A stretch of DNA of 62,483 bases. It comes from Candidatus Woesearchaeota archaeon. GTDB lineage: Archaea; Nanobdellota; Nanobdellia; Woesearchaeales; JAHWHD01. Every line of letters starts with the position of its first letter. Positions within the stretch are counted from its first letter, which is position 1. The stretch covers positions 1 to 62,483 of the forward strand of contig JAHWHD010000066.1 in the NCBI GenBank assembly GCA_019323525.1, given 5' to 3'. Under the pieces are notes generated by a model. That model ran no database searches. It was given only the letters and a program-made list of their open reading frames with translations, and had not been told where the DNA came from. The translations under genes were made by a program, and so were the position numbers. Below are positions 220-34,098 of the stretch, in pieces.

Positions 220-2052
220 TCATCTATAATTGCCATATATGACCTGGACATAACAGGTCGTACCATATACGGACCACTGATCCCAATACAACCTTGAACC
301 TGCAGGGATATAACTAACACCTAAAGGTCTATGAAGACTAACAGCATCACCATTTCCTCCGCCTCCCGCGCTCTGAACAAAACCATAGGTCCCGCCTACG
401 ATATAATGAATCCCTGAGTCATAGTTCAAATCATAGAGAGCAGAGCCATACTGCTGACCACTATGCGAACCTGTAGTTGTCATGAAAGTCCAAGGAAAAG
501 TTCCATAATTATTGACACCAAGACTAAAATAATTAGGAACAAATGCAAGACAATAGGAGCCACCATAACTTGAAGCTCCATAAACCCGCATACCTAAAAC
601 AGGCCTGTTGGCGTCAAGCACTACAGAGTTTCTATAGTAACCTCCGCCTATGCCTAAAGCAGCAACAGTAGTTAGAGGAAAGCCTCCTGTGGAATGACCC
701 TCTGCAATTCCTTGCACACCAGACCAATCATTCTTACAAACACCACCTATACAAACTTTTCCACCTAGTACAGTACCGCCAGCATATTCTCCAGCATAGT
801 TAATATAGAGTGTATCTCCGCTTTCTTCATTTACACCAAGAATAGCTAGATTTCTATCATCACCACTTGCAGTAGATGCACCACCTTGTAGCCATAAATC
901 ATAATTTGTTCCATCATATTTGTTTCTTATTGGTCCACGCACATCCAATTTTTGTGTCGGCGTACTTGTCCCAACACCAACATTACCAGTAACACCAGAA
1001 TACATGTCACTTCCAGAGATTATCCAGTCAGTATCCGCGCCGCCACCAGCACCCCCAATTAAAGGCACCCAATAAATAATCGAACTAGCAGTCAACTCAC
1101 TTGGTTGAACATTGCCAACAACTTTCCAGTATTCTCCAGCTTTGACAGGCATTGTTATACTCCCATGATAATTCCAAGCAGAATTCTGTACATAAGTCCC
1201 AGCCTCTCTAGCCCTGATTGTAGTAGGATTACTATTTGAATCAGCATAACCTATCACAAATAAATTTGAATTTTGTGTAGTCGGAACCTGAAATGTAGCA
1301 ACTACAAACCCGTCAGTCGCAGCCTGATAAATAGTATCTGGACTTCTAGCCTCAATAGTACCAAAACCTCCACCAGCACCACCTTCATCTTCAGCGCACA
1401 CCCAACTTGATGTATCCATATCATACTTCAAAACCTGTCCGTCTGCGCATGTCGGAAGAGCAGCACCGGCACCCTCGCCGCAGATTATTAAGTACTGTGC
1501 TGAGCCATACCTGATTTGTAGGCCGTTTATTGAGTTGTGTGAAAAGCAAGTGACCACCCTTCCCTGTCCCACATCAGGCGGAGGATTAAAATCTGTGCTC
1601 ACAGCAGGTGATGACCAACAATGGGTACTTGTCCTGTAGTCTATGCCGGCTCCGTGGTTTGCTGCAGCGACTATCCATTTACACTGGGATTCATCTGTAA
1701 CACCCGCTGGAAGAGGTATTGTTCCTCCATGAGGAACTATTCCAGATTCGATGATCAATCCTGAGCCAGCTCCGCCAGTATCATCACCACAAATCCAAGT
1801 TCCTGAAACAGAATCGTACTTAACAACTTGTCCATCAATACATGTTGGTAAAACAGTTCCTGTCGGCCATGTACCTATACAATCACCATTCAAACACAGC
1901 ACGTCATTGACACTTACAGTATCGGCCGTCTTCCCTCTTAACTCATCTACATACAAAGTAGTATGCGAAGGCTGGTCAGCAGTGTAACCAGTTGCAGCTA
2001 CATACGCTGCCATAAGTATTAGCAAAACAAATATCACAAACATTTTTTTCAT
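220..2052 (-). CDS. secreted Gly/Cys-rich modular surface protein, tail-fibre-like (function unknown)
   Basis: The 610-aa ORF has an N-terminal signal peptide (MKKMFVIFVLLILMAAYVAA). A Cys-bracketed motif LPTCxDGQVxKYDxxxxxWxCxxDxGGAG occurs twice. Three GGAGxG hinges are present. The segment NVGVGTSTPTQKLDVRG resembles a motif I recall from phage tail-fibre/endosialidase-chaperone-type proteins. The start abuts the stop of the upstream pilin-like gene. Confidence 0.7.
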   Translation of the reverse strand: MKKMFVIFVLLILMAAYVAATGYTADQPSHTTLYVDELRGKTADTVSVNDVLCLNGDCIGTWPTGTVLPTCIDGQVVKYDSVSGTWICGDDTGGAGSGLIIESGIVPHGGTIPLPAGVTDESQCKWIVAAANHGAGIDYRTSTHCWSSPAVSTDFNPPPDVGQGRVVTCFSHNSINGLQIRYGSAQYLIICGEGAGAALPTCADGQVLKYDMDTSSWVCAEDEGGAGGGFGTIEARSPDTIYQAATDGFVVATFQVPTTQNSNLFVIGYADSNSNPTTIRAREAGTYVQNSAWNYHGSITMPVKAGEYWKVVGNVQPSELTASSIIYWVPLIGGAGGGADTDWIISGSDMYSGVTGNVGVGTSTPTQKLDVRGPIRNKYDGTNYDLWLQGGASTASGDDRNLAILGVNEESGDTLYINYAGEYAGGTVLGGKVCIGGVCKNDWSGVQGIAEGHSTGGFPLTTVAALGIGGGYYRNSVVLDANRPVLGMRVYGASSYGGSYCLAFVPNYFSLGVNNYGTFPWTFMTTTGSHSGQQYGSALYDLNYDSGIHYIVGGTYGFVQSAGGGGNGDAVSLHRPLGVSYIPAGSRLYWDQWSVYGTTCYVQVIYGNYR

Positions 2053-2448
2053 TTAATCCACCTCTTGTCCGCAGTTAAATCCTGAAATTTTAACATCATC
2101 AGACCCCGAACCTATCGAGATCTTATCTCCAAACTGGTAAACCTGGTTATGCAGGTCTACTAAGAAGATACAAAAATCGCTTTTAACACCTAACTGGCTC
2201 TTAATAACTTGGTAATCCTGCTGCCCAAGGTCTTGTAACTTAGAAGTGTCTATCTCATTAGTACCTTGTAACCTGACACCAGTCGTGCCTGTGACTGACC
2301 GGGATATTGCTCTGCCCTCTGTAACAAGGTTCTGCAAAGGCAGACCAGTCTCTGAGTAATAAAGAAACACAACAACCCCTACAAATGCGAGTAAAAAAAT
2401 CGTGATACCTATCAACAAGTCCCATGTAAAAACCTGTGCTTTATCCAT
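2053..2448 (-). CDS. pilin-like protein (atypical class III signal peptide)
   Basis: The N-terminus MDKAQVFTWDLLIGITIFLLAFVGVV has a short charged leader, then Q and a hydrophobic helix. It overlaps the upstream pilin-like gene by 8 nt (ATGGATAA). Confidence 0.5.
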   Translation of the reverse strand: MDKAQVFTWDLLIGITIFLLAFVGVVVFLYYSETGLPLQNLVTEGRAISRSVTGTTGVRLQGTNEIDTSKLQDLGQQDYQVIKSQLGVKSDFCIFLVDLHNQVYQFGDKISIGSGSDDVKISGFNCGQEVD

Positions 2449-2854
2449 TTGTCACAAAAATCTCTCCATTCCTTTTCTCGATAATGTTAGGACCCTTGGC
2501 AAAGTCTCCATTTATATCATAGTAAAGATTAACAACATGTTGTATATTAGTGCCTTCTAAGTTTATTGTGACTAGAGTAATACCTCCAAGCTGCTCTCTC
2601 TGAGTCTGTAGAGAGTAATCAAAACCAGCAAATATATACGGAATTGTAAAGTTTCTTGAATAGCCATCTTCAACATACGCAGCAGTTGAAACTTCTGCTG
2701 ACAAGAAATCGTCAAAAGACTCAAGCGCGACCCTCAGGTTCTCTTCATTCTTCTCAGCAGTCCTCTGCGTAACAAGTATCATGAACACAGCAAATATAAG
2801 TAGCAGTATCGACAAACCCAGTGCAAATTCCACAGCAGCCTGACCCTTTTTCAT
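2441..2854 (-). CDS. archaeal type IV pilin-like protein (class III signal peptide)
   Basis: The N-terminus MKKGQAAVEFALGLSILLLIFAVFMILV carries a KG/Q prepilin-peptidase-type site and a TadE/DUF361-like AAVEF helix. It overlaps the upstream gene by 4 nt. Confidence 0.65.
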   Translation of the reverse strand: MKKGQAAVEFALGLSILLLIFAVFMILVTQRTAEKNEENLRVALESFDDFLSAEVSTAAYVEDGYSRNFTIPYIFAGFDYSLQTQREQLGGITLVTINLEGTNIQHVVNLYYDINGDFAKGPNIIEKRNGEIFVTNG

Positions 2855-3273
2855 GTTATTGATATGTTGACATACGGACCTATGTTTTCAATCCTCACAT
2901 TCTTAATACCTTGACTATAATCCTCAGGAGAAAATTCTCCTCTAAGCATGACATCTGAAGCAAAAAGCAGTTCACTCCCTTGAACATCAATCTCTAAATA
3001 ATGAAGTTTAAGATTTACAGGATCACTATAAGCAGCCATGCCATCAACACCGTCAGGAAAGTTAAGCTCTAGCGTAATCCTAGAAAGCTGTCCAAGATTA
3101 TGAACATTCTTTGCAGTGTTTACAATATCAAACCCAATCTTGTCAACAGCAGCAAGACTTACCTCAGTCTTGGATTCCTGTAAACTCACATAAGCATAAT
3201 ACGTTATTGGAAGAATTATAACTAACGCAAATCCTACTACTAACAAGTATTCAAACGAAAATTGTCCCCTCAT
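2851..3273 (-). CDS. archaeal type IV pilin-like protein (class III signal peptide)
   Basis: The N-terminus is MRGQFSFEYLLVVGFALVIILPI, an RG/Q site followed by a hydrophobic helix. Confidence 0.65.
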   Translation of the reverse strand: MRGQFSFEYLLVVGFALVIILPITYYAYVSLQESKTEVSLAAVDKIGFDIVNTAKNVHNLGQLSRITLELNFPDGVDGMAAYSDPVNLKLHYLEIDVQGSELLFASDVMLRGEFSPEDYSQGIKNVRIENIGPYVNISIT

Positions 3274-3319
3274 TTAACGTCCTGAAAATAATTTAAAAAA
3301 AATATTAAAAAAATTAAAT

Positions 3320-3808
3320 CTATGGCGCATATGGACCCGTAATAGTCAACTCACCTAAAGCGTCCTTGCTAATTGTTCCGCCTGTGAACTGATAGTTAAC
3401 CCTTACATCCATTCTGTATTTCTGACCAGGTGTTAAAGCAATGTTTGCACCACCAGGAGCAGCCACACAGTTTGCATTAAGCACACCAGTAGCTCCATTT
3501 GCGATGTTAGGAACACCAGCTGCACTTACACATTGTATTGCACTATCTCTATCATCGATGATAAGACTAGTAACATCAATGCTTCTTCCCTGGCTATTTA
3601 GTACCTCAATTTGCAAAATGGTAGGGGTACCGTATGTCGCTCCAAAATCCCTACAACTCAGAGAAGATGGCAGAACGCACCTGTCAGGTACAAGTCTTGT
3701 CACATCAAATACTCCAAAAGCTGCTAAAGCGCCGATAACTATGATAACTATCAGAATAACCCAACCATAGGTCATCAAGAACTCTAGAGCTGCTTGACCT
3801 CTTTTCAT
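3320..3808 (-). CDS. archaeal type IV pilin-like protein (class III signal peptide), probable major subunit
   Basis: The N-terminus is MKRGQAALEFLMTYGWVILIVIIVIGALAAF. It is the first gene of the operon and the rest of the protein looks beta-rich. Confidence 0.7.
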   Translation of the reverse strand: MKRGQAALEFLMTYGWVILIVIIVIGALAAFGVFDVTRLVPDRCVLPSSLSCRDFGATYGTPTILQIEVLNSQGRSIDVTSLIIDDRDSAIQCVSAAGVPNIANGATGVLNANCVAAPGGANIALTPGQKYRMDVRVNYQFTGGTISKDALGELTITGPYAP

Positions 3809-3897: not shown

Positions 3898-4992
3898 TTA
3901 TTCGTGAGAAACAGTAATAAGCCGAGATTTATTATCAACCTTAAACATCTTACCCAAAAACTGCTCAACTGTATATATGTTTGTCAAGCAATGATTCGAC
4001 ACTTTCGCGAGCTTCATCTTGCCTCCAAACACAAGCCAAGGGATCAGGTTATCTGCAAGGTACTCATCAACAGGTGCTTTATAGTTCATCTCGTTCATCA
4101 ACCGCTCAGCAGCCTCCTTCCCCACAATCTCTGCTTTCTTCCCCTTTTCACCCAGACTATCAGCCCCAATCCTAATAGGGTTCAAGTGATTAACATCCTC
4201 ATTCTTAGAAAAGACTCCCCAGAGAGTTATTCCGCAACCATCAGACATTGTATCCTGGTACTCTGTCCTGATCTTAACAGGAATACCTAACTTAATCAAA
4301 GCATGCTTTGCAGCCCTTGCCATCCTTTCAGCCACTTCAGCCTTTTGCAGACCAGAAGAAGCATGCGCAACACCTTTGACCAAGCTAAGCTTACCCTGCT
4401 CAATTAAATTGATATCAGGAACATTCCTTGAAACATCGCCTATGAACTCTGCATAATTATCATAATTATAAATCTTATACTCTGGTTTTACAGTGATATC
4501 AACCAAGCCGTTACCTTTAGGATAATACCCTCTTTTCAAGAGCTTGACATCAATAGACTTGCAGAACTTAGCCAGGTGCGGTACAAGTATCTCATTAAAA
4601 TAATCAAACGGCATTGACCATGCAACATCAGTGCCGCCTTTGATCTTCAACCTAATCTTTTTATCAGAAAAAAAACAAGGAAACAGTAAAGACTGTAAAA
4701 GTAACGTGATTGAGCCAGCAGTTCCAATATCAATGCTCAATGTCTGCGGCTTTATCCTGCCAGGTTCATACCGCAACACGCAAGAGCCAAGTTCAGCACC
4801 GTCAACTTTAGCACCGCACAGCTCCTGAAGCGCAGTTATACATGTAAGATGCTGCGGTTTCAATCCAGCTTTACAGCGACCTTTCCTGATATCAACTATC
4901 TCGAAAGGTTCTCCAAACAAAGTCGATAAAGCTAGAGCAGTCCTTGCAATCTGACCTCCTCCTTCTCCGTAATTACCGTCAAGTTTTATCAT
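3898..4992 (-). CDS. rtcA: RNA 3'-terminal phosphate cyclase
   Basis: The 364-aa protein starts MIKLDGNYGEGGGQIARTALALSTLFGEPFEIVDIRKGRCKAGLKPQHL, the characteristic RtcA N-terminus. The length is typical. Confidence 0.85.
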   Translation of the reverse strand: MIKLDGNYGEGGGQIARTALALSTLFGEPFEIVDIRKGRCKAGLKPQHLTCITALQELCGAKVDGAELGSCVLRYEPGRIKPQTLSIDIGTAGSITLLLQSLLFPCFFSDKKIRLKIKGGTDVAWSMPFDYFNEILVPHLAKFCKSIDVKLLKRGYYPKGNGLVDITVKPEYKIYNYDNYAEFIGDVSRNVPDINLIEQGKLSLVKGVAHASSGLQKAEVAERMARAAKHALIKLGIPVKIRTEYQDTMSDGCGITLWGVFSKNEDVNHLNPIRIGADSLGEKGKKAEIVGKEAAERLMNEMNYKAPVDEYLADNLIPWLVFGGKMKLAKVSNHCLTNIYTVEQFLGKMFKVDNKSRLITVSHE

Positions 4993-7026: not shown

Positions 7027-7649
7027 CTTACAAGCCTTACATCCACAGCCTTTCCCTCTTTAGAATTTATCATGAAAGGGTTAATGTCAAGCTCTTCAAC
7101 ACCCGTAATTTTGGAAACTCCGACAAGAGCGGCCTTAAGAATATCTAAATTAACAGGTTTTTCTCCTCTGAAACCCTCTAATAACTTTTTACCTTTCAAG
7201 TCATCTATCATATCTTGAGCATCATCTTGGCTGATAGGACAAACCCTGAAAGAAACATCTTTCAAGAGCTCGACAAATATGCCTCCAAGTCCGAACATTA
7301 TAACCTGTCCAAATGTAGGGTCTTTCTTAAGACCGATTATAACCTCTTTACCTTCGACAAACTCCTGAACAAGTATACCGTCAAGCCTTAGCTTCTTTCG
7401 TCTGGCAAGCTGAAGTAGATCATTAAAATTCTTCTGTAGCTCAAGATAGTTCTTCACAACCCTAACACCCTTAATCTCAGTCTTGTGCACAGCCTGCTTT
7501 GAAATGATTTTAAGGACAACATGATGTTTATACCTCTTAGCAAACCGTTCTGCTTCAGCTAGCTTTTTAACCATCACAGAATCAGCTACCTTGACATACC
7601 TTTTAACAAAATCATAGGCATCCTTGCCTAATAACACCCCTTTTTTCAT
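7023..7649 (-). CDS. acdB: acetyl-CoA synthetase (ADP-forming), beta subunit (ATP-grasp)
   Basis: The 208-aa ATP-grasp_5-like sequence contains VVLKIISKQAVHKTEIKGV and QEFVEGKEVIIGLKKDPTFGQVIMFGLGGIFVE. It is divergent from the alpha subunit gene. Confidence 0.75.
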   Translation of the reverse strand: MKKGVLLGKDAYDFVKRYVKVADSVMVKKLAEAERFAKRYKHHVVLKIISKQAVHKTEIKGVRVVKNYLELQKNFNDLLQLARRKKLRLDGILVQEFVEGKEVIIGLKKDPTFGQVIMFGLGGIFVELLKDVSFRVCPISQDDAQDMIDDLKGKKLLEGFRGEKPVNLDILKAALVGVSKITGVEELDINPFMINSKEGKAVDVRLVR

Positions 7650-7742: not shown

Positions 7743-9092
7743 ATGTTAGATAATTTCTTCAACGCAAAACACATTGCGATAGTTGGCGCATCAAAAGAAC
7801 CTAGCAAGATAGGCCACGTTATTTTCAGGAACTTCATAGATACAGATTATGATGGAAAAATATTTCCTGTTAATCCCAACGCAGAACTGATCCTAAACCG
7901 CAAATCTTACAAATCAGTTCTAGACATAAAAGAAAAACTTCACCTTGCAATAATTGCAGTACCTGCAAAGTTCATTCTAAAGGTAGTTGAACAATGCGGT
8001 AAAAAAAAAATAAAAGATTTGATGATAATCACTGCAGGCTTTGAAGAGGTAGGAAACTTAAAACTGAAACAGCAACTAGAAAAGCTCTTAAAAAAATACA
8101 AGATACGCGTCATTGGACCAAATTGTCTTGGAACATTTAACTCCTACAACAACTTTGATTCTATGTTCTTACCAAGGTCGCGCCTAAAAAGACCAGAACC
8201 AGGGACTATATCATTTGTAAGCCAGTCAGGAGCTCTAGGCTCTGCAATCCTTGACCTGGCCGCAAAAGAAGGTTATGGAATCTCAAAGTTCATCAGCTAT
8301 GGCAATGCAATCAACACTAACGAATCTGACATACTGGAATACCTAAGTGACGACCCAAAGACAAAAGTCATCTGCCTTTATATCGAAGGCGTCAAAGACG
8401 GAAAACGATTCTTGGAAGTCTGTAAAAAGATAAAAAAACCTATCATCGCAATCAAGGGCGGCGTCACAGAAGCAGGTTCAAAAGCAACACTTTCTCATAC
8501 AGGAAGTTTAGCAGGCTCAGCTGAAATCTATAGAGGAGTCTTCAAACAAGCAGGGATTATAGAAGCTGAATCATTAGAAGACCTGTTCAATTATGCAAGG
8601 GTCTTAGAAAAAACAATTAAACCAAAAGGAAGGAGAGTACAGATTATAACAAACGGCGGCGGTTATGGGATAGTTAGTGCTGATGCTTTAGCACGGTACA
8701 ATCTTGAAGCCGCAAAACTATCTGCTACAACAATAAAAGAATTAAAAATACATCTACCGCCAATAGCAATCATAAAAAATCCGATGGACTTGATAGGAGA
8801 CGCCGACACTGAACGTTACAAGCTTGCAATCGATGCTTGCATGAACGATAACAATATAGACATCATCTACATCGTACTTCTATACCAGACACCGCTTATC
8901 ACTCCAGACATAATAGACATTGTCTCAGAATACAACGACTTAAAGAAAAAACCGATAATAACAGTCTCAACAGGCTCAGAGTTCACAGAAGTACTAAGAA
9001 AAGGCCTTGAAGAGAACAACGTACCTTGCTTTGAGTTTCCTGATAATGCAATGAAAGCTATAGGTAAATTGGTTGAGTATTATGATGTATAA
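7743..9092 (+). CDS. acdA: acetyl-CoA synthetase (ADP-forming), alpha subunit (CoA-binding/ligase-CoA domains)
   Basis: The protein starts MLDNFFNAKHIAIVGASKEPSKIGHVIFRN. It also contains GPNCLG, VSQSGALG and a SHTGSLAG phosphohistidine loop. Length is 449 aa. Confidence 0.85.
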   Translation: MLDNFFNAKHIAIVGASKEPSKIGHVIFRNFIDTDYDGKIFPVNPNAELILNRKSYKSVLDIKEKLHLAIIAVPAKFILKVVEQCGKKKIKDLMIITAGFEEVGNLKLKQQLEKLLKKYKIRVIGPNCLGTFNSYNNFDSMFLPRSRLKRPEPGTISFVSQSGALGSAILDLAAKEGYGISKFISYGNAINTNESDILEYLSDDPKTKVICLYIEGVKDGKRFLEVCKKIKKPIIAIKGGVTEAGSKATLSHTGSLAGSAEIYRGVFKQAGIIEAESLEDLFNYARVLEKTIKPKGRRVQIITNGGGYGIVSADALARYNLEAAKLSATTIKELKIHLPPIAIIKNPMDLIGDADTERYKLAIDACMNDNNIDIIYIVLLYQTPLITPDIIDIVSEYNDLKKKPIITVSTGSEFTEVLRKGLEENNVPCFEFPDNAMKAIGKLVEYYDV

Positions 9093-9111
9093 CTTCTGAA
9101 ACTACCGCCAA

Positions 9112-9224
9112 TGCTGAAATCTGTGTCTGTACATGCGAGCGAACAACAATGATATTCGTAAGACAGAAGGTGGCTCAATTAAAAGCTGCTGATGTTTAAG
9201 TCTATGAGCGAACAGATTTCAGCA
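9112..9224. ncRNA. candidate structured element E1 (13-bp closing stem, about 87-nt interior), family unknown
   Basis: TGCTGAAATCTGT (9112-9124) is the exact reverse complement of ACAGATTTCAGCA (9212-9224). The interior shares ordered blocks with a second element at 33989-34098. It lies in the convergent gap between acdA and porB, 20 nt after the acdA stop. Confidence 0.35.
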
Positions 9225-12177: not shown

Positions 12178-13434
12178 TTATTTGTTTTTCTTGCTGTTGC
12201 CCTTTGAGGTAGATTCTAGTTCCTCTTCATCTTCGACTTCATCGTCTTCTACTTCAAGGTCATCTAGCTGGTCTTCACTATCTTCGTCTTCAAGCTCAGC
12301 CCCGTCTTCTTCCTCTTCCTCAAGCTCGTCTTCGTCTTCAACATCTCCTGCTTTAGCCTTTTCCTTAGTTTTCGCTTTCTCTTTAGTCTCTGCTTTCTCT
12401 TTCTTAACGACGCCAGTACCTTTCTTGACGATTCTTACTTCAGAAAGTTCTCTACCTTCTTTAAGAGCACCTTCAAGAGCCTCAATCTCTTCATCTGTAG
12501 CTCCTTTCTCAGCCTTTATCTTGATCTTGGTCTTGTTCTTCTTAGCCTCAACCTTAACCTTGAACTGGCTGTTAACACCTTCTAAATTCTGAAGCATGTT
12601 CTGAAGCTGTGTTTGTTGCTCTTGGTCAAGTCCTTTAACTTTAAGCCTTAGCTGGTTAAGTTCTTGGAGTGTCTCCTGGTTCTCTTGAAGACCTGCTTCG
12701 ATTTCTAGTTGATCTTCTAGATCTGCTTCAGCATCTCCGTCACCAATAGCTTCAACATTCTCAGCTACTTCCTCCATTGCCTCTTCATACGCATCCTGAG
12801 CCTCTCCTGCTTTAGCTAACTTCTTAGCAGCGATCATAGCCTTAACTTCAGCTAGCCTCTCATGCGCATGTGCAAGACCTTTCTTAGCTTTAGCTGACTT
12901 CCCGAATGTTAAAGACAAGCTAATCCTTTCCATAGCCCTCTCAATACCGTACAATGGGCTGTCTGGAGTAATTCCAGCTTCTTCTTCCTCTTCTTCTGTT
13001 AGCTCTACAACCTCTTCTTCAACTACATCTTCTTCAGCAGCTTCGTCTTCAGCTACTTCTTCTTCAGCAGCTTCGTCTTCAGCCACGTCTTCTTCAGCAG
13101 CCCCGTCTTCAGCTACGTCTTCTTCAGCAGCCTCATCTTCAGCTACGTCTTCTTCAGCAGCCTCGTCTTCAGCTACGTCTTCTTCTGCAGCCTCATCTTC
13201 AGCTACGTCTTCTTCTGCAGCCGCGTCTTCAGCTACATCTTCTGCTGCGTCATCTTCAGCAGCAGCAGCATCAACTGTATCTTCAGCTGTCCCATCTGCT
13301 GTATCGTCAGCTACATCTTCTGTCACAGTATCATCTGCTACTGTGTCATCTGTTGCAGCCTCTTCTGCTAATGCAAACGATGCTACACTTAACACCATCA
13401 ACATCAGCACCAAAATTGCAAATATTTTTTTCAT
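12178..13434 (-). CDS. secreted, extremely acidic repeat protein with coiled-coil C-terminal half
   Basis: A signal peptide (MKKIFAILVLMLMVLSVASFALA) is followed by about 140 aa of D/E/A/V repeats. Next comes GITPDSPLYGIERAMERISLSLTFG, which from memory resembles the DUF5667-type motif. The C-terminus has K/E-rich helices and an acidic tail. Confidence 0.7.
   Translation of the reverse strand: MKKIFAILVLMLMVLSVASFALAEEAATDDTVADDTVTEDVADDTADGTAEDTVDAAAAEDDAAEDVAEDAAAEEDVAEDEAAEEDVAEDEAAEEDVAEDEAAEEDVAEDGAAEEDVAEDEAAEEEVAEDEAAEEDVVEEEVVELTEEEEEEAGITPDSPLYGIERAMERISLSLTFGKSAKAKKGLAHAHERLAEVKAMIAAKKLAKAGEAQDAYEEAMEEVAENVEAIGDGDAEADLEDQLEIEAGLQENQETLQELNQLRLKVKGLDQEQQTQLQNMLQNLEGVNSQFKVKVEAKKNKTKIKIKAEKGATDEEIEALEGALKEGRELSEVRIVKKGTGVVKKEKAETKEKAKTKEKAKAGDVEDEDELEEEEEDGAELEDEDSEDQLDDLEVEDDEVEDEEELESTSKGNSKKNK
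13021..13245. repeat. 30-bp in-frame tandem repeat (about 7 copies) encoding (A)AEEDVAEDE(A)
   Basis: The unit agctacgtcttcttcagcagcctcgtcttc is repeated head-to-tail with a few point differences. It lies inside the acidic protein CDS. Confidence 0.85.
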
Positions 13435-13522
13435 TTTGGTTTACCTCCGTATAGTTTATTATGATTGCAGCATTACTGCCACAATTATCTAGTAGGTGAA
13501 ACAAATACTTAGTTATTGTCAA

Positions 13523-13588
13523 TGGAACAATAGGCCATTTGCAGATATTAAGACAATACTGCAGGCCTAATTGTTCCATATTGTTCCA
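13523..13588. promoter_or_regulatory. cluster of three GGAACAAT-type motifs (one forward, two reverse in tandem), candidate operator
   Basis: TGGAACAATAGGCC (13523-13536) faces GGCCTAATTGTTCCA (13564-13578), a near-perfect inverted repeat. ATTGTTCC then recurs 10 nt later (13580-13587). The cluster lies upstream of the acidic-protein gene. Confidence 0.3.
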
Positions 13589-13680
13589 ACACCAATCTTT
13601 TCCCAAAATAGACCTGAAAAGAGCTTATTTGGACAAAGAGGCAGGGATTTTATGGCAAAAAGAGGGGTGGGAGTGCATTT

Positions 13681-13881
13681 TCATCCCGCCTCCTTTCCAA
13701 GCTCATTCCAGCAAATCTCATCTATTGAACCTTGGTTTGGTTTAAGATGATCATCTATCCTTCTAATCATGACATACTGCTCCATGAGTCTTTTTTCCTC
13801 AGCTTCATAAACTGCCTCGTAATCGCCATACAGTAAACGAGCAAGAGGTTCAATCAGATATTGTTTGATTACTTTGTACAT
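13681..13881 (-). CDS. small hypothetical protein (66 aa)
   Basis: An ATG at 13881 is preceded by GGAGGTAAGAAA. The product is MYKVIKQYLIEPLARLLYGDYEAVYEAEEKRLMEQYVMIRRIDDHLKPNQGSIDEICWNELGKEAG. The track start at 13977 adds an unsupported extension. Confidence 0.4.
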   Translation of the reverse strand: MYKVIKQYLIEPLARLLYGDYEAVYEAEEKRLMEQYVMIRRIDDHLKPNQGSIDEICWNELGKEAG

Positions 13882-13992
13882 TTTCTTACCTCCGGTTGTT
13901 AGACCATATCCTAGTAAGACTAGAAAATAGTTAGTTCTTGTTACTGAAACCATCAAAGCTTTTGATAAATAATCCACAGAAACTGCATTACA

Positions 13993-14010
13993 ATAGTTCC
14001 ATATTGTTCT
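13993..14010. promoter_or_regulatory. second copy of the GTTCCATATTGTTC 14-mer (two tandem motif units)
   Basis: GTTCCATATTGTTC at 13996-14009 is identical to 13573-13586. It sits 3 nt beyond the stop of the wHTH gene and upstream of the small ORF. Confidence 0.3.
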
Positions 14011-14011
14011 G

Positions 14012-14905: not shown

Positions 14906-16060
14906 TTATCTCTTTTTTAAGAAATCAGCGATTCTGTCCATTGCTATTTCAATTAATTTATAGTCAGTTGCATAGGAACACCTGACATAACCTTCACCAT
15001 TATTCCCAAAATCAGTTCCAGGAACAACGGCCACCTTTGCTTTTTTGAGTAACTGGTCTGCAAAAAACCTAGAATTGTTAGAATATTCTTTGATGTTCGT
15101 AAAAGCATAGAAGGCTCCTTTAGGCATTGCTACACGCAGATTCAATTCGTTCAACCTTTTGATAATCATCTTCCTTCTTCTGTTATACTCCTTTACCATT
15201 GCATCAGTATACTTTGAAGATAAGGATAAAGCTTTCAAACCAACAAGCTGGGATACAGTTGGGGCGCATATCGTAGTATAAATATGTGACTTTGTCATTG
15301 CCTGTACAACATCTTCTGGCCCAACACAATAGCCTAGCCTAAACCCGCACATTGCATATGTTTTTGAAAAACTATGGAATGTAAGCACATAAGGCTCCAT
15401 CCCATTCAATGAACCTATTGAAATATGTTTAGCATTATCGTAGAGAATCTTTTCATAAGCCTCATCTGAGAATATGTAGAAATTGTACTCAATTGCCAAA
15501 TCAGCAATCTCTTCAAGCAACTTTTTAGAGAATACAGTCCCTGTTGGATTAGCTGGAGAATTTATAAGAAGCGCGTTCGTCTTCTTCCTATCAACCTGCT
15601 TCTTTATATCATCAGGATCAAAAGCAAAACCATTCTCTTCATAAACATCCACAAACCTAGGCACAGCATTAAACAGTTCAAATGTCGGCAAGAAGCCCAT
15701 AAAGCTAGGATTAGGCAGTATTATCTGCTCTGAAACATCAAGAGTGCAAGCAGTTGCTAACGCTAAACCTTCCTGGCTTCCGCAAGTAACAATAATATTC
15801 TCAGGGTTTGCCTTTATCCGGTTATCATTTTTCAGTTTCCTGATAATCGCTTCCTTAAAATCAGACCTTCCACCAGGCGGAGAATAGTGGTTGATCTTAT
15901 CAGCCACCCTCTTCACCTCAGCAACAAGCGGTTTTGGCAAAGGAAAATCTGGCTCACCAGGACCTAAACTGATAACACTCTTATCTTCAGCAGCAATCTT
16001 TAGAAGTTTACCAATAACAGCATCTGGCAGTTCCTGTTCCCTTTCAGAAATCTCTCTCAT
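14906..16060 (-). CDS. class I/II PLP-dependent aminotransferase (aspartate/aromatic aminotransferase-like)
   Basis: The 384-aa protein has the SFSKTYAMCGFRLGY PLP-lysine motif, NPANPTG and a conserved C-terminal R (YVRCSYA). Confidence 0.85.
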   Translation of the reverse strand: MREISEREQELPDAVIGKLLKIAAEDKSVISLGPGEPDFPLPKPLVAEVKRVADKINHYSPPGGRSDFKEAIIRKLKNDNRIKANPENIIVTCGSQEGLALATACTLDVSEQIILPNPSFMGFLPTFELFNAVPRFVDVYEENGFAFDPDDIKKQVDRKKTNALLINSPANPTGTVFSKKLLEEIADLAIEYNFYIFSDEAYEKILYDNAKHISIGSLNGMEPYVLTFHSFSKTYAMCGFRLGYCVGPEDVVQAMTKSHIYTTICAPTVSQLVGLKALSLSSKYTDAMVKEYNRRRKMIIKRLNELNLRVAMPKGAFYAFTNIKEYSNNSRFFADQLLKKAKVAVVPGTDFGNNGEGYVRCSYATDYKLIEIAMDRIADFLKKR

Positions 16061-16182
16061 CCTCTTTTTTCAAGCATAATTATTATTAACACATTTATAA
16101 TATTTTTGTAATTTACAGTAAAACTTATATACTTAAAACCCAAAAACATCATATTAACTATATATAAAAAAAGAGGTACAGC

Positions 16183-17652
16183 ATGAAGCAATACAAGCTT
16201 TACATTAATGGTAAATGGGTTAACTCTAGTTCTAGTAAGACCTTCAAAACCTACAACCCAGCAAACAAGAAACCTCTTGCAGTTTTCCAGGAAGGAACTG
16301 AGAAAGATGTAATGAAAGCAATAGCTGCAGGAGAGAAAGCTTACATAAAATGGTCATCATTACCTGCACCTAAAAGAGCCCAGTACCTTTTCGTAATTTC
16401 AAACTTGTTAAGAGAAAACAAGGAACGTCTTGCTAAACTCATCACTTTAGAGATGGGAAAAGTCCTGGTAGAAGCAAGAGGCGATGTACAGGAGGCTATC
16501 GACATATTCGAGTACATGGCTGGAGAAGGAAGAAGATTATTTGGCCATACCACGCCATCTGAACTTCCTGACAAGTTCTGCATGACTGTAAGAAGACCTA
16601 TAGGCGTTGTCGGGATTATAACTCCATGGAACTTTCCAATCGCGCTTCCTGCATGGAAGATAGCCCCTGCACTGATCTGCGGCAATTCAATCATCTTCAA
16701 ACCATCTTCAGACACCCCATTATGCGCTCTAGAACTTGTCAAGATACTTGAACAAGCCCAGTTACCTTCTGGAATTATTAACTTTATTCCAGGCCCTGGC
16801 AGCTCAGTAGGTTCAGAAATAGTAAAGAACCCAAAGATTCGGGCAGTATCGTTCACAGGCTCAACAATAACAGGTAAATGGATCACAGAAAACGCAGGTG
16901 TAAAAAAGCTTGGCTTAGAACTTGGCGGCAAGAACCCAATCATTATAATGGATGATGCTAACCTAGACCTTGCTGTTGACGGAATAATCTGGGGCGCTTT
17001 TGGAACAACAGGCCAGAGATGCACTGCAACCTCTAGAGTTATTGTGCATAAAAAAATAAAAAAGAAACTAGAAAAAAGACTGCTAAAAAGAGTAAGGAAA
17101 CTTAAACTCGGCTCTGGATTGAACCCAAAAACAGACATCGGACCTTTAATAAACAAAGCAGCAGTCGAAAAAGTAACAAACTATGTAAATTCAGGTAAAG
17201 AGCAAGGAGCTAAACTCTTATGCGGCGGCTCAACACCGAAAATAAAAGGATTTTTCTTTAACCCAACAATTTTCACAAATGTCAAGAAGGATATGAACAT
17301 AGCTAAAGAAGAGATCTTTGGCCCTGTTCTTTCAATTATTCCTGTTAAAGATATCGACCAGGCAATTGAAGTCGCAAACTCAGTAGAATACGGGCTGAGT
17401 TCCTCAATCTACACACAAGACATGAAATATGCATTCAAAGCAATCAACAAAATCGAAGCAGGAATCACATATATCAACTCAAGCACTATAGGTTCAGAAG
17501 TTCATCTTCCATTTGGCGGAATTAAGCATACAGGCAACGGCACAAGAGAGGCGGGGATAGAAGGGATTAACGAGTTCTCAGAAACAAAAACAGTCTATGT
17601 AGATTATTCAGATAAACTGCAGAAAGCGCAGATAGACCTTTACGAAAAATGA
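16183..17652 (+). CDS. NAD(P)+-dependent aldehyde dehydrogenase (possibly succinate-semialdehyde dehydrogenase)
   Basis: LELGGKNP, the catalytic Cys in GQRCTA, the EEIFGPV motif and FTGST are present. Length is 489 aa. The substrate guess rests only on the adjacent class III aminotransferase. Confidence 0.85.
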   Translation: MKQYKLYINGKWVNSSSSKTFKTYNPANKKPLAVFQEGTEKDVMKAIAAGEKAYIKWSSLPAPKRAQYLFVISNLLRENKERLAKLITLEMGKVLVEARGDVQEAIDIFEYMAGEGRRLFGHTTPSELPDKFCMTVRRPIGVVGIITPWNFPIALPAWKIAPALICGNSIIFKPSSDTPLCALELVKILEQAQLPSGIINFIPGPGSSVGSEIVKNPKIRAVSFTGSTITGKWITENAGVKKLGLELGGKNPIIIMDDANLDLAVDGIIWGAFGTTGQRCTATSRVIVHKKIKKKLEKRLLKRVRKLKLGSGLNPKTDIGPLINKAAVEKVTNYVNSGKEQGAKLLCGGSTPKIKGFFFNPTIFTNVKKDMNIAKEEIFGPVLSIIPVKDIDQAIEVANSVEYGLSSSIYTQDMKYAFKAINKIEAGITYINSSTIGSEVHLPFGGIKHTGNGTREAGIEGINEFSETKTVYVDYSDKLQKAQIDLYEK

Positions 17653-21366: not shown

Positions 21367-22911
21367 ATGGGGGCTATAAGGGATAGAGCAGGAAATGGAA
21401 CACGAAGCACAGACACATCCTCAGAACTATGGATGGCAAGTAGAAGCCGATACACGCAAGTAATCAACAGAAGAGGCATCGTCTGGGACTATCTGGGAGA
21501 TATAATTAACAGATATACCAATTATCTGAAGAGCGTATTTTCTAGCAATCCAGAAAACAAAAGAGCTGCAAAAAGAGAGGAGATATTAGTAGAAATAGAA
21601 AAACTAGAAGATATTAAGAACCTGAACATGCTTTGGTACCGTCCATACAGGTGGAATGGCCTCTCATCATTCTTACTTGAAGAATACCCTGGAAAATATA
21701 AGGAGTATCCACCACTTACTAAAGAGCAGTTAAAGGAATTCTTTATGAAGTCATACGAGCTTATGGATAAGGCAGACGCACCATCAACCTGTCCTGAAGG
21801 AAAACCACCCAGTATTCATTTTCTTGAGACATTCGAAAAATTTTGCGAAACATATGAAAAAGAAGAAGGAGAAGAGGACATAGATTTGAGCAATAACTTT
21901 TTGAAAGGTGATGAGTGCAGTGACCAACAAGCAAATTTACAGACTAGAGCCGCTATAACATGCTTATGTAACATGATGTTTAACACTGCCAGCGAATTTT
22001 ATAATGATGGATATATCGCATCATGGAAAGGCGTGTTTAGAGATGCGGCAGAATATGCAGAATGCGACAAATTCAGGGCGTTAGAAACATTATTCACAAA
22101 AGTCGCAGAGCACAGATCTGCAAGAAAAAGAATAAGCGAATATATTTCCTGCAAAACAAAGAGAGCTGCCAAGATTGGAAAAATAGGGCTTACAACTACA
22201 GCTATTGTTGGTGCATGTTACGCAGGCCTATTATTTACTGGACTGTTTGACACATTTGCAAAAGAAGCTAAAAACGCCGGATGGAACAGAACTGCAGCAA
22301 TATTTAGACATTTAGACCAAGCACCAAAATCATTTTTTAGAGGTTCAAAAAAACTACAAGAAAAAATAAAGCAGCCGATAAAAGTAACAGCGTCCGCGAG
22401 ATTTGATTCTCCAGAACCGACACCAACCAAACCATCCACAAAAACACCGAGACCAACGCCAACACCCACAATAGACTACCAAAAACTATTGAACAGTTAT
22501 AGCAGCAAAGCAGTCACTTACCGTGCTGCTCTTGCAAAAGAGGATACTGATATTGGAAAACTAACTCAACAAATCCAGGAAAGTTATTCTGGATTTAGAA
22601 GCTTAGAACCAGAGTTCAAGTCTAGAAATTTAGATTATACAGGAATCAAAAAAAGCTTAGAAGGATATCTAAGGACAGCTAATGATAAATCAAAAACAAC
22701 GAGTAAGCTAGCTGGCGACATAAAATCATACCAAGCAGCAATGTCTAGTTTCGTTAAGGGAAAACACTCAACAGCTGAATGGTGCAAATGGCTTGAAGCG
22801 TATGAAAAGAAAAGAGACAGACTTCTTAAGAGAATAAAAGACCCTGCAAAAACAAAAGCAGTTAAGTCAGGTTACGACAAATTTGTTGACGAGTACATTA
22901 AAAACAATTAG
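21367..22911 (+). CDS. orphan bitopic membrane protein (island gene A)
   Basis: The 514-aa protein has a single TM near residue 275 (IGKIGLTTTAIVGACYAGLLFTGLF). A Pro/Thr linker (PEPTPTKPSTKTPRPTPTPT) and a helical C-terminal domain follow. I recognise no family. Confidence 0.55.
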   Translation: MGAIRDRAGNGTRSTDTSSELWMASRSRYTQVINRRGIVWDYLGDIINRYTNYLKSVFSSNPENKRAAKREEILVEIEKLEDIKNLNMLWYRPYRWNGLSSFLLEEYPGKYKEYPPLTKEQLKEFFMKSYELMDKADAPSTCPEGKPPSIHFLETFEKFCETYEKEEGEEDIDLSNNFLKGDECSDQQANLQTRAAITCLCNMMFNTASEFYNDGYIASWKGVFRDAAEYAECDKFRALETLFTKVAEHRSARKRISEYISCKTKRAAKIGKIGLTTTAIVGACYAGLLFTGLFDTFAKEAKNAGWNRTAAIFRHLDQAPKSFFRGSKKLQEKIKQPIKVTASARFDSPEPTPTKPSTKTPRPTPTPTIDYQKLLNSYSSKAVTYRAALAKEDTDIGKLTQQIQESYSGFRSLEPEFKSRNLDYTGIKKSLEGYLRTANDKSKTTSKLAGDIKSYQAAMSSFVKGKHSTAEWCKWLEAYEKKRDRLLKRIKDPAKTKAVKSGYDKFVDEYIKNN

Positions 22912-23350
22912 AGATAAATTCTATAACAGGTTTATGATAGCCTGTCAGATATGAAGCTGTACCCAAGATACTTAAACCCGCGATAATACATGCTCCAGCA
23001 ACAATCGCATTATCAATAGTACAGTGCTTGTTAGCAAAATCCTTGAAACCCTCAACACAAGTATTGAGCATGTTCTTTGCCCTTGTTGAATAGCTGTTGA
23101 TTTTTTCTATAGCTAATTCAGTCCTGTACCTTGCATAAGCATCTCTTGGAGTTATACCGGGATTCTCTGTAAGAATCTTATTATAGGCTCGTTCTAAGTC
23201 ATTACCTGAACCTGCGCACATCTTCATAAAATCATACTTCTGCTGTAGATTATCAAGTTTATCCTTTAGTAAAGAACTCTCTTTATCAGCAGCCTTCAGA
23301 CTAAGATCGACTATTCTTGACAAACCTCTAAAATCGTTATCCTCTGACAT
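22898..23350 (-). CDS. orphan tail-anchored membrane protein (island gene B)
   Basis: I prefer the ATG at 23350 (MSEDNDFRG...). A TTTTTTAAAC TATA-like box lies about 25 nt upstream, consistent with a leaderless transcript. The C-terminal TM is AIVAGACIIAGLSILGTASYLTGY. It overlaps gene A convergently by 14 nt. Confidence 0.5.
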   Translation of the reverse strand: MSEDNDFRGLSRIVDLSLKAADKESSLLKDKLDNLQQKYDFMKMCAGSGNDLERAYNKILTENPGITPRDAYARYRTELAIEKINSYSTRAKNMLNTCVEGFKDFANKHCTIDNAIVAGACIIAGLSILGTASYLTGYHKPVIEFISNCF

Positions 23351-23479
23351 GACTATTACAAAACATGAATAGTTTAAAAAACTTGTTGTTTTCACTACTC
23401 GAAAATACTAAAACAATAGAAAACTTTATATATTTTTGAGCTCATGCTAGATAAATATAGTATTAATAGGGGGATAATT

Positions 23480-25222
23480 ATGGTTGATGATAAAATTGAT
23501 GGACTTGAGCATGATAGGGATAGCTGGACTATTTTCTGGACAAATGTTAGCGCTCACTATGAAACACAAGGTGCTAAGACTATAGAGATTTATCCTCACT
23601 TTAAATCCTATATCAAAGAACAAGGAATCACAATCACCCCTGATAACATCCCAGAAACTGAAGAATTCTGTGCAGGTCTTGACAGCTACCTACTTGAAAA
23701 AGGATACACAAATGGCAATGGCTGGACATCAGAAATATTAGGATGGACTGAAGACGAGAAGCAAAGGAGAATCGTAGGCGCTAAAGTAAAGACTGTTATT
23801 GACGATCTGCTTAAAAAAATCGAAAATTTTGATAAGCAAGACGAGCCAACAAAAGCAGCTGTTGCTGGAGCAATCATTGCTGGCGGATTTGGATCCAATA
23901 CCCTTAAACAGGCAATAATCGCTAAAGACATTAAGAACGCTGAAGTCTATACAAGATCAGGACTTAACCAAGGAATGTATCAAGCTCTAATACAAGAGAT
24001 TGTTGAAATGCCTTCAGCACAGATGCAGACTTCTAAACAATATGGAGATTTATTGGAGATGTTAAGGCAGAACCACTGCAGGGATGTTGTAAAGCCTCAT
24101 ACTAAAGAAGTTATTGAAAAAACAGTTTTCGAAGTTCTTAACGAGAAACGAGAAGCATACCTTCAATTAAAAGAAACCCAAGAGGCAAGGCAAGAAGGTA
24201 CAGTAGACAGAAAGAGGCTTGACGATAAAGCAGACCAGAACCTTGCAGAAACAAAAGGTGTTCGACAGGTGGCTTCTACTATAAAATCATACCTAGACGC
24301 CGTTATAAATTGGGGTAGAGAAAACAAGAAAAACCTCGCATACGGAACTATCGGAGTGGTTTTGTTAGGCGGTCTTGGGATAGCGGGTATTGTCTATAAG
24401 TCACACAATGCTGCTAAACAAGCTGAAAAAGCTCGGATTGAAGCTTCAGAAACAAGAAAGACAGTTAATAACACTGCTAAAAAAGTTGAAGTTGTACAGA
24501 AAGAAGCAGATGCAGCACGTAAAGAGACAAAGCAAAGGCACAGCCTTGCACAGATGCTAGATGTATACTATAATGACGCTAAAAAAGCAAAAGGCTTTGA
24601 CGATGTCGCTTCAATGTACCTTATGGGCCATGAGGTAGAAGACTCAAAAAGTTTTGTATCAGCAGCAGCCACAATAGGCACAAGCGATCAAGCTTTGATA
24701 CAAGATAATGTTCCAAAGTTCAAGGAAGTTACACAGAGAAGAGCTTCTTACATAGCAAGGTCATTGTTTGACAAGGCTGTAGAGTTCGAACCAGATAACC
24801 TTAGCCTTAACAAGCTGCTTGTTAATTACAAGCATCTGCACCCTAAACGAAAAGTAACTTACATTGGAGATGCACTCTATGCTCTTGCTCAGAACCAACA
24901 ATTCAAAGCAAAGATGCCAGAAGAGTTAAAGCCTTTGTTCGGCAACATCGAGAGAACAGTAAGTGAAGCTAAAAAATCCGGCTTTAACAGAAGACGGAGT
25001 ACTTTGCAGCTGATACGGAAGTTTGTTGCAGATATTAATAACGAATCTAGACTTCAGGGAAAGGCGCTTGACAAGGCTTTAAAAAATGAATGGGTCTGGA
25101 AAGTTGACAGTATAACTCCTTTCACAGAAATCTGGTATAAAAGATTAGACGAGCTTGAAAAAGAAGCTGAAGGAGACAACTCAAAAGAGGACGTAAGGCA
25201 GCTGTTGTTTAAAACCAAATGA
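23480..25222 (+). CDS. orphan bitopic coiled-coil membrane protein (island gene C)
   Basis: I prefer the ATG at 23480, after AGGGGGAT. The track start at 23444 lies too close to the TATA box at 23425-23433. A central TM (LAYGTIGVVLLGGLGIAGIVY) is followed by a K/E/A coiled coil. Confidence 0.55.
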   Translation: MVDDKIDGLEHDRDSWTIFWTNVSAHYETQGAKTIEIYPHFKSYIKEQGITITPDNIPETEEFCAGLDSYLLEKGYTNGNGWTSEILGWTEDEKQRRIVGAKVKTVIDDLLKKIENFDKQDEPTKAAVAGAIIAGGFGSNTLKQAIIAKDIKNAEVYTRSGLNQGMYQALIQEIVEMPSAQMQTSKQYGDLLEMLRQNHCRDVVKPHTKEVIEKTVFEVLNEKREAYLQLKETQEARQEGTVDRKRLDDKADQNLAETKGVRQVASTIKSYLDAVINWGRENKKNLAYGTIGVVLLGGLGIAGIVYKSHNAAKQAEKARIEASETRKTVNNTAKKVEVVQKEADAARKETKQRHSLAQMLDVYYNDAKKAKGFDDVASMYLMGHEVEDSKSFVSAAATIGTSDQALIQDNVPKFKEVTQRRASYIARSLFDKAVEFEPDNLSLNKLLVNYKHLHPKRKVTYIGDALYALAQNQQFKAKMPEELKPLFGNIERTVSEAKKSGFNRRRSTLQLIRKFVADINNESRLQGKALDKALKNEWVWKVDSITPFTEIWYKRLDELEKEAEGDNSKEDVRQLLFKTK

Positions 25223-25257
25223 TGTTGTCACTCCAACATACTAACAACAACGAAAGC

Positions 25258-25266
25258 TTTAAATAT
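25258..25266 (+). promoter_or_regulatory. TATA box (gcTTTAAATAT) for island genes D-E
   Basis: It lies about 40 nt upstream of ATG 25302. GAGGGGA sits 7 nt before the ATG. Confidence 0.4.
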
Positions 25267-25301
25267 TATCGCAATTTTGCAATCAAATCGAGGGGATTTT
25301 A

Positions 25302-27959: not shown

Positions 27960-27975
27960 CGAGGTGTTTAAAAAA

Positions 27976-32910: not shown

Positions 32911-32940
32911 TTAAATAGACCTTTAGTTCTACAAGACATC

Positions 32941-33988: not shown

Positions 33989-34098
33989 AATGAAACCTTG
34001 GCCAATGATGGCCAGCGAGCAACTGTGCAACATCGTAAGACTTTCGGCGCCTTGTTTAAACTATTTAAAATCAAGGCTGCGAGCGACAAGGTTTCATT
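33989..34098. ncRNA. candidate structured element E2 (12-bp closing stem), same family as 9112-9224
   Basis: AATGAAACCTTG (33989-34000) is the exact reverse complement of CAAGGTTTCATT (34087-34098). It shares the blocks GCCAGCGAGCAA, TCGTAAGAC and stem-abutting GAGCGA with E1. It starts 2 nt after the reductase stop. Confidence 0.35.

Follow-up and report, generated by a model that had tools for sequence, protein, structure and literature searches.

A dispersed family of small four-helix elements in Woesearchaeota-type archaea

Enterobacterial repetitive intergenic consensus elements or intergenic repeat units (ERIC/IRU) and Rickettsia palindromic elements (RPE) are palindromic repeats of ~100–150 bp, located between or within genes, that fold back, have no known transposase, and lie in transcribed spacers whose occupancy varies between related species. 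Copies within these families are closely similar and form one long imperfect hairpin, and substitution patterns preserving RNA pairing have been reported for ERIC. Miniature inverted-repeat transposable elements (MITEs), including those of archaea, are small, non-coding and intergenic, carry terminal inverted repeats and show insertion polymorphism. A folded single strand is also the functional form of the integron attC sites, which are 57–141 nt long, lie directly 3′ of an open reading frame (ORF), carry the R″/R′ boxes RYYYAAC / GTTRRRY and conserve structure under varying sequence. Archaeal C/D box small RNA (sRNA) genes, which combine short conserved boxes with variable segments, occur as many paralogues per genome, often adjoin the 3′ end of a protein gene or overlap it, and turn over rapidly between species. 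Genomes of DPANN archaea measure ~1 Mb and are under strong deletion pressure, and to our knowledge almost nothing is known about their non-coding RNAs and mobile DNA. Here we analyzed a 62,483-nt stretch of DNA (contig JAHWHD010000066.1, hereafter the window) from a DPANN (Woesearchaeota-type) host, in which two intergenic elements, E1 (9112–9224) and E2 (33989–34098), were found to belong to a real family absent from Rfam and present in Woesearchaeota-type archaea. Judged by likeness, the closest analogues of this family are the ERIC/RPE intergenic palindromic repeats and MITEs.

Both elements were closed by perfect inverted repeats, TGCTGAAATCTGT / ACAGATTTCAGCA in E1 (13 bp, arms separated by 87 nt) and AATGAAACCTTG / CAAGGTTTCATT in E2 (12 bp, arms separated by 86 nt), and these were the only perfect repeats of at least 12 bp among 21 pairs detected in a scan of the whole window for inverted repeats no more than 200 nt apart. 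The 12-mer GCSAGCGARCAA occurred exactly twice in the window, each time 10 nt past a 5′ arm, the 9-mer TCGTAAGAC also had exactly two occurrences, one per element, and GAGCGA adjoined the 3′ arm in both; these segments correspond to the conserved blocks A, B and C of Table 1. E1 began 19 nt past the stop codon of acdA (7743–9092; ADP-forming acetyl-CoA synthetase alpha-type) and faced the stop of the convergent pyruvate:ferredoxin oxidoreductase (PFOR) beta gene. E2 began 1 nt past the stop of a geranylgeranyl-reductase (GGR)-like gene (32941–33987), and was followed downstream by a gene for a 188-aa hypothetical protein and an AglB/STT3 gene. A preliminary description of this DNA had reported the two perfect closing repeats, the shared internal blocks in the same order and the location just past plus-strand stops; the coordinates and sequences of the repeats were confirmed, exact copies of the blocks were present in the window only in E1 and E2, and the distances to the stops were as given above. 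That description had also called the two pairs of arms unrelated in sequence, which proved incorrect, because a GAAA (5′ arm) and UUUC (3′ arm) core, placed exactly 5 bp from the inner end of the closing helix, and A/T-rich termini were common to the copies. The plus strand of E1 folded at −35.4 kcal/mol (z = −3.4 relative to shuffles) and that of E2 at −36.9 kcal/mol (z = −4.0), and the minus strands gave z values of −2.6 and −3.2, respectively.

The family as sampled comprised six copies in four genomes, four of them outside the window in three other Woesearchaeota-type metagenome-assembled genomes (MAGs). A scan of one genome per GTDB species, using a pattern that consisted of the three internal blocks and held no arm information, returned six matches, five of which lacked flanking complementarity and were chance hits in GC-rich coding DNA. 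The remaining match, at locus L002 downstream of dnaK, combined blocks at the same spacing with a helix of 9 bp free of mismatches, GAAACTGCC / GGCAGTTTC, exactly where the arms were predicted; since the pattern contained no arm information, this helix excluded chance resemblance. The other copies were located at syntenic loci of relatives, which were reached through exact-protein look-ups. The copy at L037 (19031–19151 of GCA_034722435.1) was found by motif with arm information unused, and those at L046 (5953–6066 of the same assembly; 53 bits, E = 6e-10) and L047 (11868–11981, identical to L048; 71 bits, E = 9e-14) were found by a covariance model (CM) built without them. Copies measured ~105–125 bp and shared 57–65% pairwise identity, even inside one genome, and the ~0.25 Mb of Woesearchaeal DNA sampled yielded these six copies and nothing else above noise.

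Homologues of acdA placed the window in the DPANN group of Woesearchaeota/Nanoarchaeota, the same group as L002. The L002 record is labelled 'uncultured Methanosarcinales archaeon'; its DnaK was 74–92% identical to Woesearchaeota/Nanoarchaeota proteins and grouped with them, so the label or the bin is probably wrong. A metagenome pattern scan and two viral scans returned chance matches only, with patterns stricter than the true family, as indicated by the fact that the L037, L046 and L047 copies would all fail them. BLAST searches against plasmids and phages and a literature search on the motif strings and on DPANN non-coding RNAs returned nothing relevant.

All six copies shared a common plan, in which the closing helix P1 encloses the helices P2, P3 and P4 together with unpaired CAGCGAA, AAGAC and GAGCGA. 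P1 consisted of an A/U-rich outer extension (near UAAUAU / AUAUUA, or TAATAT / ATATTA in the DNA), followed by GAAA/UUUC and then by five variable pairs. The core was replaced by GAGA/UCUC in L047 and by UAAA opposite UUUC, which leaves a U-C mismatch, in L037. The five inner pairs differed in every copy, but one strand (5′) was always pyrimidine-rich and its partner (3′) purine-rich. Over the six sequences, 53 of the 54 cells of the P1 core were paired (98%), and 6 of its 9 pairs had changed on both sides. The P1 covariation score of 0.518 compared with 0.221 in shuffles and was reached by 0 of 500, and pairing fell to 25–47% when the 3′ partners were slid by 1–3 columns. Independent decay of the arms at 57–65% identity would leave ~36 of the 54 cells paired, and the probability of at least 53 paired cells would be ~9e-9.

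The internal helices were less uniform. P2 started with zero spacer after the 5′ strand of P1 and had the form GCC-loop-GGC with a fourth A-U or U-A pair. P3 was formed by GCGA of block A (GUGA in L047) and UCGU of block B around a loop of 11–14 nt; it is the least secure helix, because it showed no double change in any copy and was broken in L046, and for UCGU the GCGA/ACGA of block C is an equally possible partner. AAGAC followed P3 unpaired. A P4 hairpin of 6–8 bp was present in every copy with a sequence unrelated between copies, and block C, which read GAACGA in L047 and GGCGA in L046, directly preceded the 3′ strand of P1. G-U pairs occurred in P1 (L037), P2 (E1), P3 (all copies) and P4 (three in E1), and these would be A-C mismatches on the opposite strand, which points to the plus strand as the strand that folds. 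Taken together, the pattern of substitutions settles that a single-strand fold is under selection and is kept by compensatory change. Two proposals of the preliminary description were thereby upheld and extended from two copies to six: arm complementarity was maintained through both-side changes in the homologues recovered from relatives (L002, L037, L046 and L047/L048), and the undescribed structured family gained four more copies with the same plan and no Rfam match.

Site occupancy was not conserved. Every occupied site had an empty orthologous counterpart among the close relatives sampled (five loci). The acdA–PFOR spacer that harbors E1 was empty in L035 (28 nt) and L037 (48 nt), and in the closest relative, L053, the E1 site was also empty (40 nt, before a CYTH gene). 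The E2 spacer was empty in L044 (75 nt) and L045 (40 nt). Conversely, the window itself lacked an element at the site occupied in L037 (orthologous spacer 16060–16183, 122 nt) and at the site occupied in L046 (orthologous spacer 32910–32941, 30 nt). The dnaK site was filled in L002 and L047 and empty in L052 and the marine L049–L051, and the relatives with the empty site showed 90–92% DnaK identity to L002. As a separate observation, the divergent aminotransferase/aldehyde dehydrogenase spacer of the window is bracketed at 16061–16176 by CCTCTTTTTT ... AAAAAAAGAGG, which are mirror-image ribosome-binding/5′-leader sequences of the two genes and not a family element.

Several loci carried signs of insertion and decay. 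The L037 copy was flanked on both sides by the 9-bp direct repeat AATTATTCC, 4 nt outside the arm extensions, and a shared word of this length arose in the 20-nt flanks in 1 of 100,000 shuffles. At L002, the 9-mer AAATTACAA was found on both sides of the element at unequal distances, and no convincing target-site duplication was found at E1, E2, L046 or L047. Beside E1, a solo 5′ arm (9098–9113) agreed with the L002 arm GAAACTGCCGCC at 11 of 12 positions, and nowhere else did the window match that arm with one mismatch or fewer (0.09 matches expected). This arrangement suggests either that part of a copy was duplicated or that a later copy inserted next to, or within, an earlier one. At L002, a solo 3′ arm, GTAGTTTCATAA, was located 37 nt past the copy (~4150–4180, minus strand), at the position of the L047 3′ arm, and a single insertion does not account for the history of this locus. 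In L046, the spacer that corresponds to the E2 site (7215–7372) was 234 nt long versus 40–75 nt in other relatives. It contained a mini-hairpin, UUGAAAAU...GCGA-AAUUUUCAA, that looks like an internally deleted copy, with a weak match of 13 bits, and a second fold-back with 10-bp arms, AAAAGUUUGC / GCAAACUUUU, around GCC...GGC and AAGAC; both may be decayed family copies. These results settled that the copies are dispersed, that no single site requires one and that they tend to decay. Copies come and go between genes yet always keep the fold, indicating that the folded single strand (RNA or DNA) does something.

The position of the copies bears on whether they are transcribed. In L002 and L047 the element lay between the dnaK stop and a conserved T5–6 run, and E2 lay between the GGR stop and a conserved TATA-like box of the next gene, so that, judged from these positions, these three copies should be in the 3′ untranslated region (UTR) of the upstream gene. 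A search around the six copies found no common promoter or terminator motif. The neighbours of the copies were acdA/PFOR, GGR/AglB, an Ig-like surface protein/GGR, DnaK/DnaJ and aminotransferase/aldehyde dehydrogenase.

Our tentative preference, held with somewhat less than even confidence, is that E1 and E2 represent a MITE-like dispersed insertion in 3′ UTRs and spacers, with selection acting on the folded single strand as transcript or as single-stranded DNA (ssDNA). In favour of such an insertion are the A/T-rich termini common to the copies, the flanking duplication, the remnants and the total absence of site conservation. It would be a small non-autonomous element with termini near TAATAT-GAAA ... 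UUUC-ATATTA that inserts into very short spacers, either past stop codons or between promoters, varies in presence among close relatives, and leaves solo arms and possibly internally deleted derivatives. Because of where the element sits, most copies would be transcribed on the plus strand together with the upstream gene, as part of its 3′ UTR or of intercistronic RNA, and the single strand would fold into the four-helix junction P1–P4. A factor, either a mobilising enzyme or a host RNA-binding protein, may read the junction of the folded strand, and within an mRNA the compact fold may give the 3′ end a structure that does no harm or protects it mildly, in which case only copies that fold would persist.

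The likeness to MITEs extends beyond the general features of these elements to the 9-bp flanking direct repeat in one copy and to the decayed derivatives. In the preliminary description a MITE had been dismissed with the argument that it would keep the same terminal repeats in both copies. This dismissal was too quick, given the empty sites, the 9-bp duplication, the solo arms and the possible deleted derivative. The outer A/T-rich part and GAAA/UUUC are shared, and the inner 5 bp differ in every copy. At the same time, a number of observations weigh against an insertion of this kind. The terminal repeats vary from copy to copy in their inner half yet stay complementary within each copy, which a transposase reading the end sequence does not predict. 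Identities of 57–65%, even within one genome, leave no sign of a recent burst of near-identical copies, only one of the six copies has a clear target duplication, and no autonomous partner was found in the window. The window encodes no transposase, integrase or reverse transcriptase, and the viral contigs contained no copy as judged by patterns stricter than the true family. The L037 copy is flanked by divergent promoters, a setting in which transcription together with a neighbour is not obvious, and the sample of ~0.25 Mb of relevant genomes sets the bounds of any estimate of copy number per genome. Moreover, when conserved internal single-stranded blocks occur together with covarying helices, they classically mark a functional RNA gene rather than junk. 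Compared with ERIC and RPE, which the elements resemble in size, fold-back and variable occupancy of transcribed spacers (transcription being judged here from position only), the present family differs in its ~60% identity between copies, its four-helix junction, the unpaired state of its most conserved nucleotides and its DPANN host.

The signature of conserved blocks and covarying helices would be expected if the copies were independent ~110-nt RNA genes that produce a new ribonucleoprotein (RNP) or guide-type RNA of DPANN archaea, which is the main competing explanation, but one that we consider rather unlikely and less probable than a MITE-like insertion. As equally doubtful details of such a scheme, the junction blocks might bind protein, the variable P3/P4 loops or P1 might carry copy-specific information, and the paralogues might turn over fast between species in the manner of archaeal C/D box sRNA genes. 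The star-like pairwise identities of ~60% would then reflect long-standing purifying selection on each copy instead of recent copying, the G-U pairs would indicate a strand-specific RNA, and the presence of several copies per genome would be natural. The L037 copy is also in keeping with such genes, since no host transcript evidently covers it and it would have to be expressed from a promoter of its own. Against this explanation, none of the six copies has a TATA/BRE-like (B recognition element-like) box at a fixed upstream distance or an oligo-T terminator directly downstream, and three of them start 1–6 nt past the upstream stop codon, which leaves no promoter room outside the coding sequence. 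Each site is unoccupied in relatives with 66–92% protein identity, the truncated and solo-arm remnants and the 9-bp flanking duplication point to insertion and decay, and no target or partner protein was identified. Small RNA genes explain the conserved unpaired blocks and the star-like identity better than a MITE-like insertion does, but come without promoters and terminators and do not predict the signatures of insertion. A further explanation, to which we assign a low probability, takes folded ssDNA as the functional form, serving as a structure-specific substrate of recombination or transposition like attC or the ends of IS200/IS605; it is conceivable at about the same low level that the arms stay complementary as a hairpin substrate or through fold-back mismatch correction during mobilisation. 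Complementarity kept under sequence drift, conserved nucleotides beside a helix, positions directly 3′ of ORFs, polymorphic occupancy with a flanking duplication in one copy, and the good folding of both strands (see the minus-strand z values above) are all compatible with this explanation. The arms, however, read GAAAY / RUUUC followed by A/U and do not fit the R″/R′ consensus of attC, the conserved blocks lie inside the element and not at the crossover point, and the neighbours are syntenic housekeeping (core) genes rather than cassettes. Neither an integron integrase nor an HUH/Y1 transposase is encoded in the window, G-U pairs, which would be G-T in DNA, are frequent in P3 and P4, and the duplication at the L037 copy does not fit elements of the IS200/IS605 type, which leave their target unduplicated.

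Known RNA classes provided no match. As in the preliminary description, which had failed to assign the elements to a class, Rfam 15 gave no match at gathering score anywhere in the window, permissive Rfam scans of the E1 and E2 regions returned noise of 10–22 bits, and ARAGORN detected no tRNA in the window with or without introns. A divergent tRNA or tRNA-like RNA, 5S rRNA, C/D or H/ACA sRNA, self-cleaving ribozyme or riboswitch is therefore very improbable, even though the size and the cloverleaf-like outline fit. Four helices do radiate from one junction, as in tRNA, and the two ends form the closing helix, but this helix is 9–14 bp long, the zero-nt junction lies on the 5′ side, so that the outline mirrors that of tRNA, and T-loop, D-loop and anticodon features are missing. 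Intron-containing, permuted and split tRNAs were rejected on the same ARAGORN result and missing loop features. The 4-bp helix followed by a 13–14-nt loop and AAG loosely recalls helix III/loop C of 5S rRNA ('CGAAC...AAG' after a 13-nt loop), but there was no 5S rRNA match in Rfam even at E ≤ 10, and no 5S-type helix II could be drawn in L037. UGAUG-like words are present in E1 and E2, but these and other box-like words of C/D and H/ACA type had no conserved positions, and the Rfam C/D models scored 14–22 bits against thresholds of 36–75 bits, which is sub-threshold noise. The elements share paralogy and the alternation of short conserved boxes with variable segments with the archaeal C/D families, but are twice the size and have no C (RUGAUGA) or D (CUGA) box at the helix ends and no kink-turn (k-turn). 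On inspection, no ANA triplet of H/ACA type stood at a constant position, and P1 had no GA after a 3-nt bulge that would make a k-turn.

Among the remaining candidates, ribozymes (hammerhead, twister, twister-sister, pistol, hatchet and HDV-like) had no Rfam match, and GAAA lies inside a helix and covaries to GAGA/UCUC in L047. A bulge-helix-bulge splicing motif was rejected because P1 has no bulges and no 4-bp central helix stands beside GCGA. The sole evidence for a CRISPR repeat or CRISPR RNA tag was a weak Rfam CRISPR-DR5 match in E2 that stems from the word GAAAC. A riboswitch or other cis-regulatory leader finds no common class of neighbouring gene and no consistent gene association. The least probable explanation of all, to which we give hardly any credence, is chance resemblance or an origin from a duplicated piece of coding sequence. 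One frame of block A gives Ala-Ser-Glu-Gln, and in that frame both differences between E1 and E2 in the block are synonymous; in addition, a 49-codon ORF overlaps E2. This 'ASEQ' peptide was rejected because its reading frame is not kept between copies: the distance from block A to block B is 17, 18 or 19 nt and that from B to C is 50, 52, 54 or 57 nt, and with such variable spacings no frame is held. Stops occur in nearly every frame of every copy, an ATG start exists only in E2, and the spacings are not multiples of three, which excludes the decayed duplicated coding gene considered in the preliminary description. Independent copies with compensated helices in other genomes likewise argue against chance. 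Known RNA classes and chance are effectively excluded, and the family is set apart from all the systems considered by compensated helices in diverged copies, the four-helix junction, unpaired conserved nucleotides and the DPANN host. The coordinates of the features in the window are given in Table 1.

Table 1. Positions of E1, E2 and their parts in the window (blocks and helices as described in the text)
Feature	Position	Strand	Remarks
Element E1, full copy, 113 nt	9112–9224	+	CM score 108.9 bits
E1 P1 5′ strand UGCU-GAAA-UCUGU	9112–9124	+	perfect 13-bp pairing with 9212–9224; five covarying pairs
E1 P1 3′ strand ACAGA-UUUC-AGCA	9212–9224	+	
E1 P2 mini-hairpin GUCU-GUAC-AUGC	9125–9136	+	weakest P2 of the six; the other five are GCC...GGC
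E1 block A GCGAGCGAACAA	9135–9146	+	GCGAA 9139–9143 = P3 5′ strand
E1 block B UCGUAAGAC	9156–9164	+	UUCGU 9155–9159 = P3 3′ strand; AAGAC unpaired
E1 P4 hairpin GGUGGCU / AGCUGCU	9169–9190	+	three G-U pairs
E1 block C GAGCGA	9206–9211	+	adjoins P1 3′ strand
Solo 5′ arm remnant GAAACTACC-GCC-AATG	9098–9113	+	starts 5 nt past acdA stop; overlaps first two bases of E1
Element E2, full copy, 110 nt	33989–34098	+	CM score 103.5 bits
E2 P1 5′ strand AAU-GAAA-CCUUG	33989–34000	+	
E2 P1 3′ strand CAAGG-UUUC-AUU	34087–34098	+	
E2 P2 mini-hairpin GCCA-AUGA-UGGC	34001–34012	+	
E2 block A GCCAGCGAGCAA	34011–34022	+	GCGA 34015–34018 = P3 5′ strand
E2 block B UCGUAAGAC	34033–34041	+	UCGU = P3 3′ strand
E2 P4 hairpin GCCUUG / CAAGGC, A/U-rich loop	34049–34077	+	
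E2 block C GAGCGA	34081–34086	+	adjoins P1 3′ strand

Other features of the window and of the related loci were noted in passing. An RNA 3′-phosphate cyclase (RtcA-type) gene (3898–4992) is located 4 kb from E1 and keeps its synteny in relatives without E1; no link between the two is indicated. The minus-strand gene at 12178–13434 encodes a 418-aa DUF5667 protein and contains a tandem repeat at 13008–13289 (30-nt period, 7.8 copies, 91% matches), which would encode a 10-residue acidic unit. The 578-nt spacer at 13435–14011, unusually long for a dense genome, holds a small ORF on the minus strand, likewise called in relatives (51–98 aa), and two exact copies of GTTCCATATTGTTC at 13573 and 13996, beside a DUF7343/MarR-like regulator gene, which may be operator sites. 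About half of the window (34.7–62.4 kb) is a glycosylation and cell-surface cluster with one AglB/STT3, three further PMT_2/STT3-like membrane glycosyltransferases, NeuB, DegT and a radical-SAM/B12 enzyme. Two runs of ORFs without a Pfam match, at 220–3808 (610, 131, 137, 140 and 162 aa) and 21367–29772 (514, 165, 592 and 885 aa), probably encode lineage-specific surface proteins, and a 602-aa ORF of the window had only a faint Ig-like match. At L052 (7997–11107), a Helicase_C / HTH_61 helicase of 1036 aa carries an intein with a LAGLIDADG endonuclease, and its orthologues in L047 and L049 (527–529 aa) are without an intein.

It is possible, though on balance we think it unlikely, that the family constitutes a new class of archaeal element whose selected unit is the four-helix single-strand fold, either as a mobile element recognised and mobilised by its fold (as RNA or ssDNA) instead of by fixed terminal sequences, or as a DPANN-specific family of small RNP RNAs with copy-specific information in their variable helices; a more distinct class would result if mobilisation or function depended on the fold itself, which we regard as similarly doubtful. 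If true, the outcome would be either a type of structure-dependent mobile element not described in archaea or an unrecognised RNP RNA, whereas an ordinary MITE with a side effect at the RNA level would be of modest interest. Either outcome comes with a searchable covariance model, R2, and a handful of loci for transcript mapping, and the element is a marker for recent genome rearrangement in Woesearchaeales.

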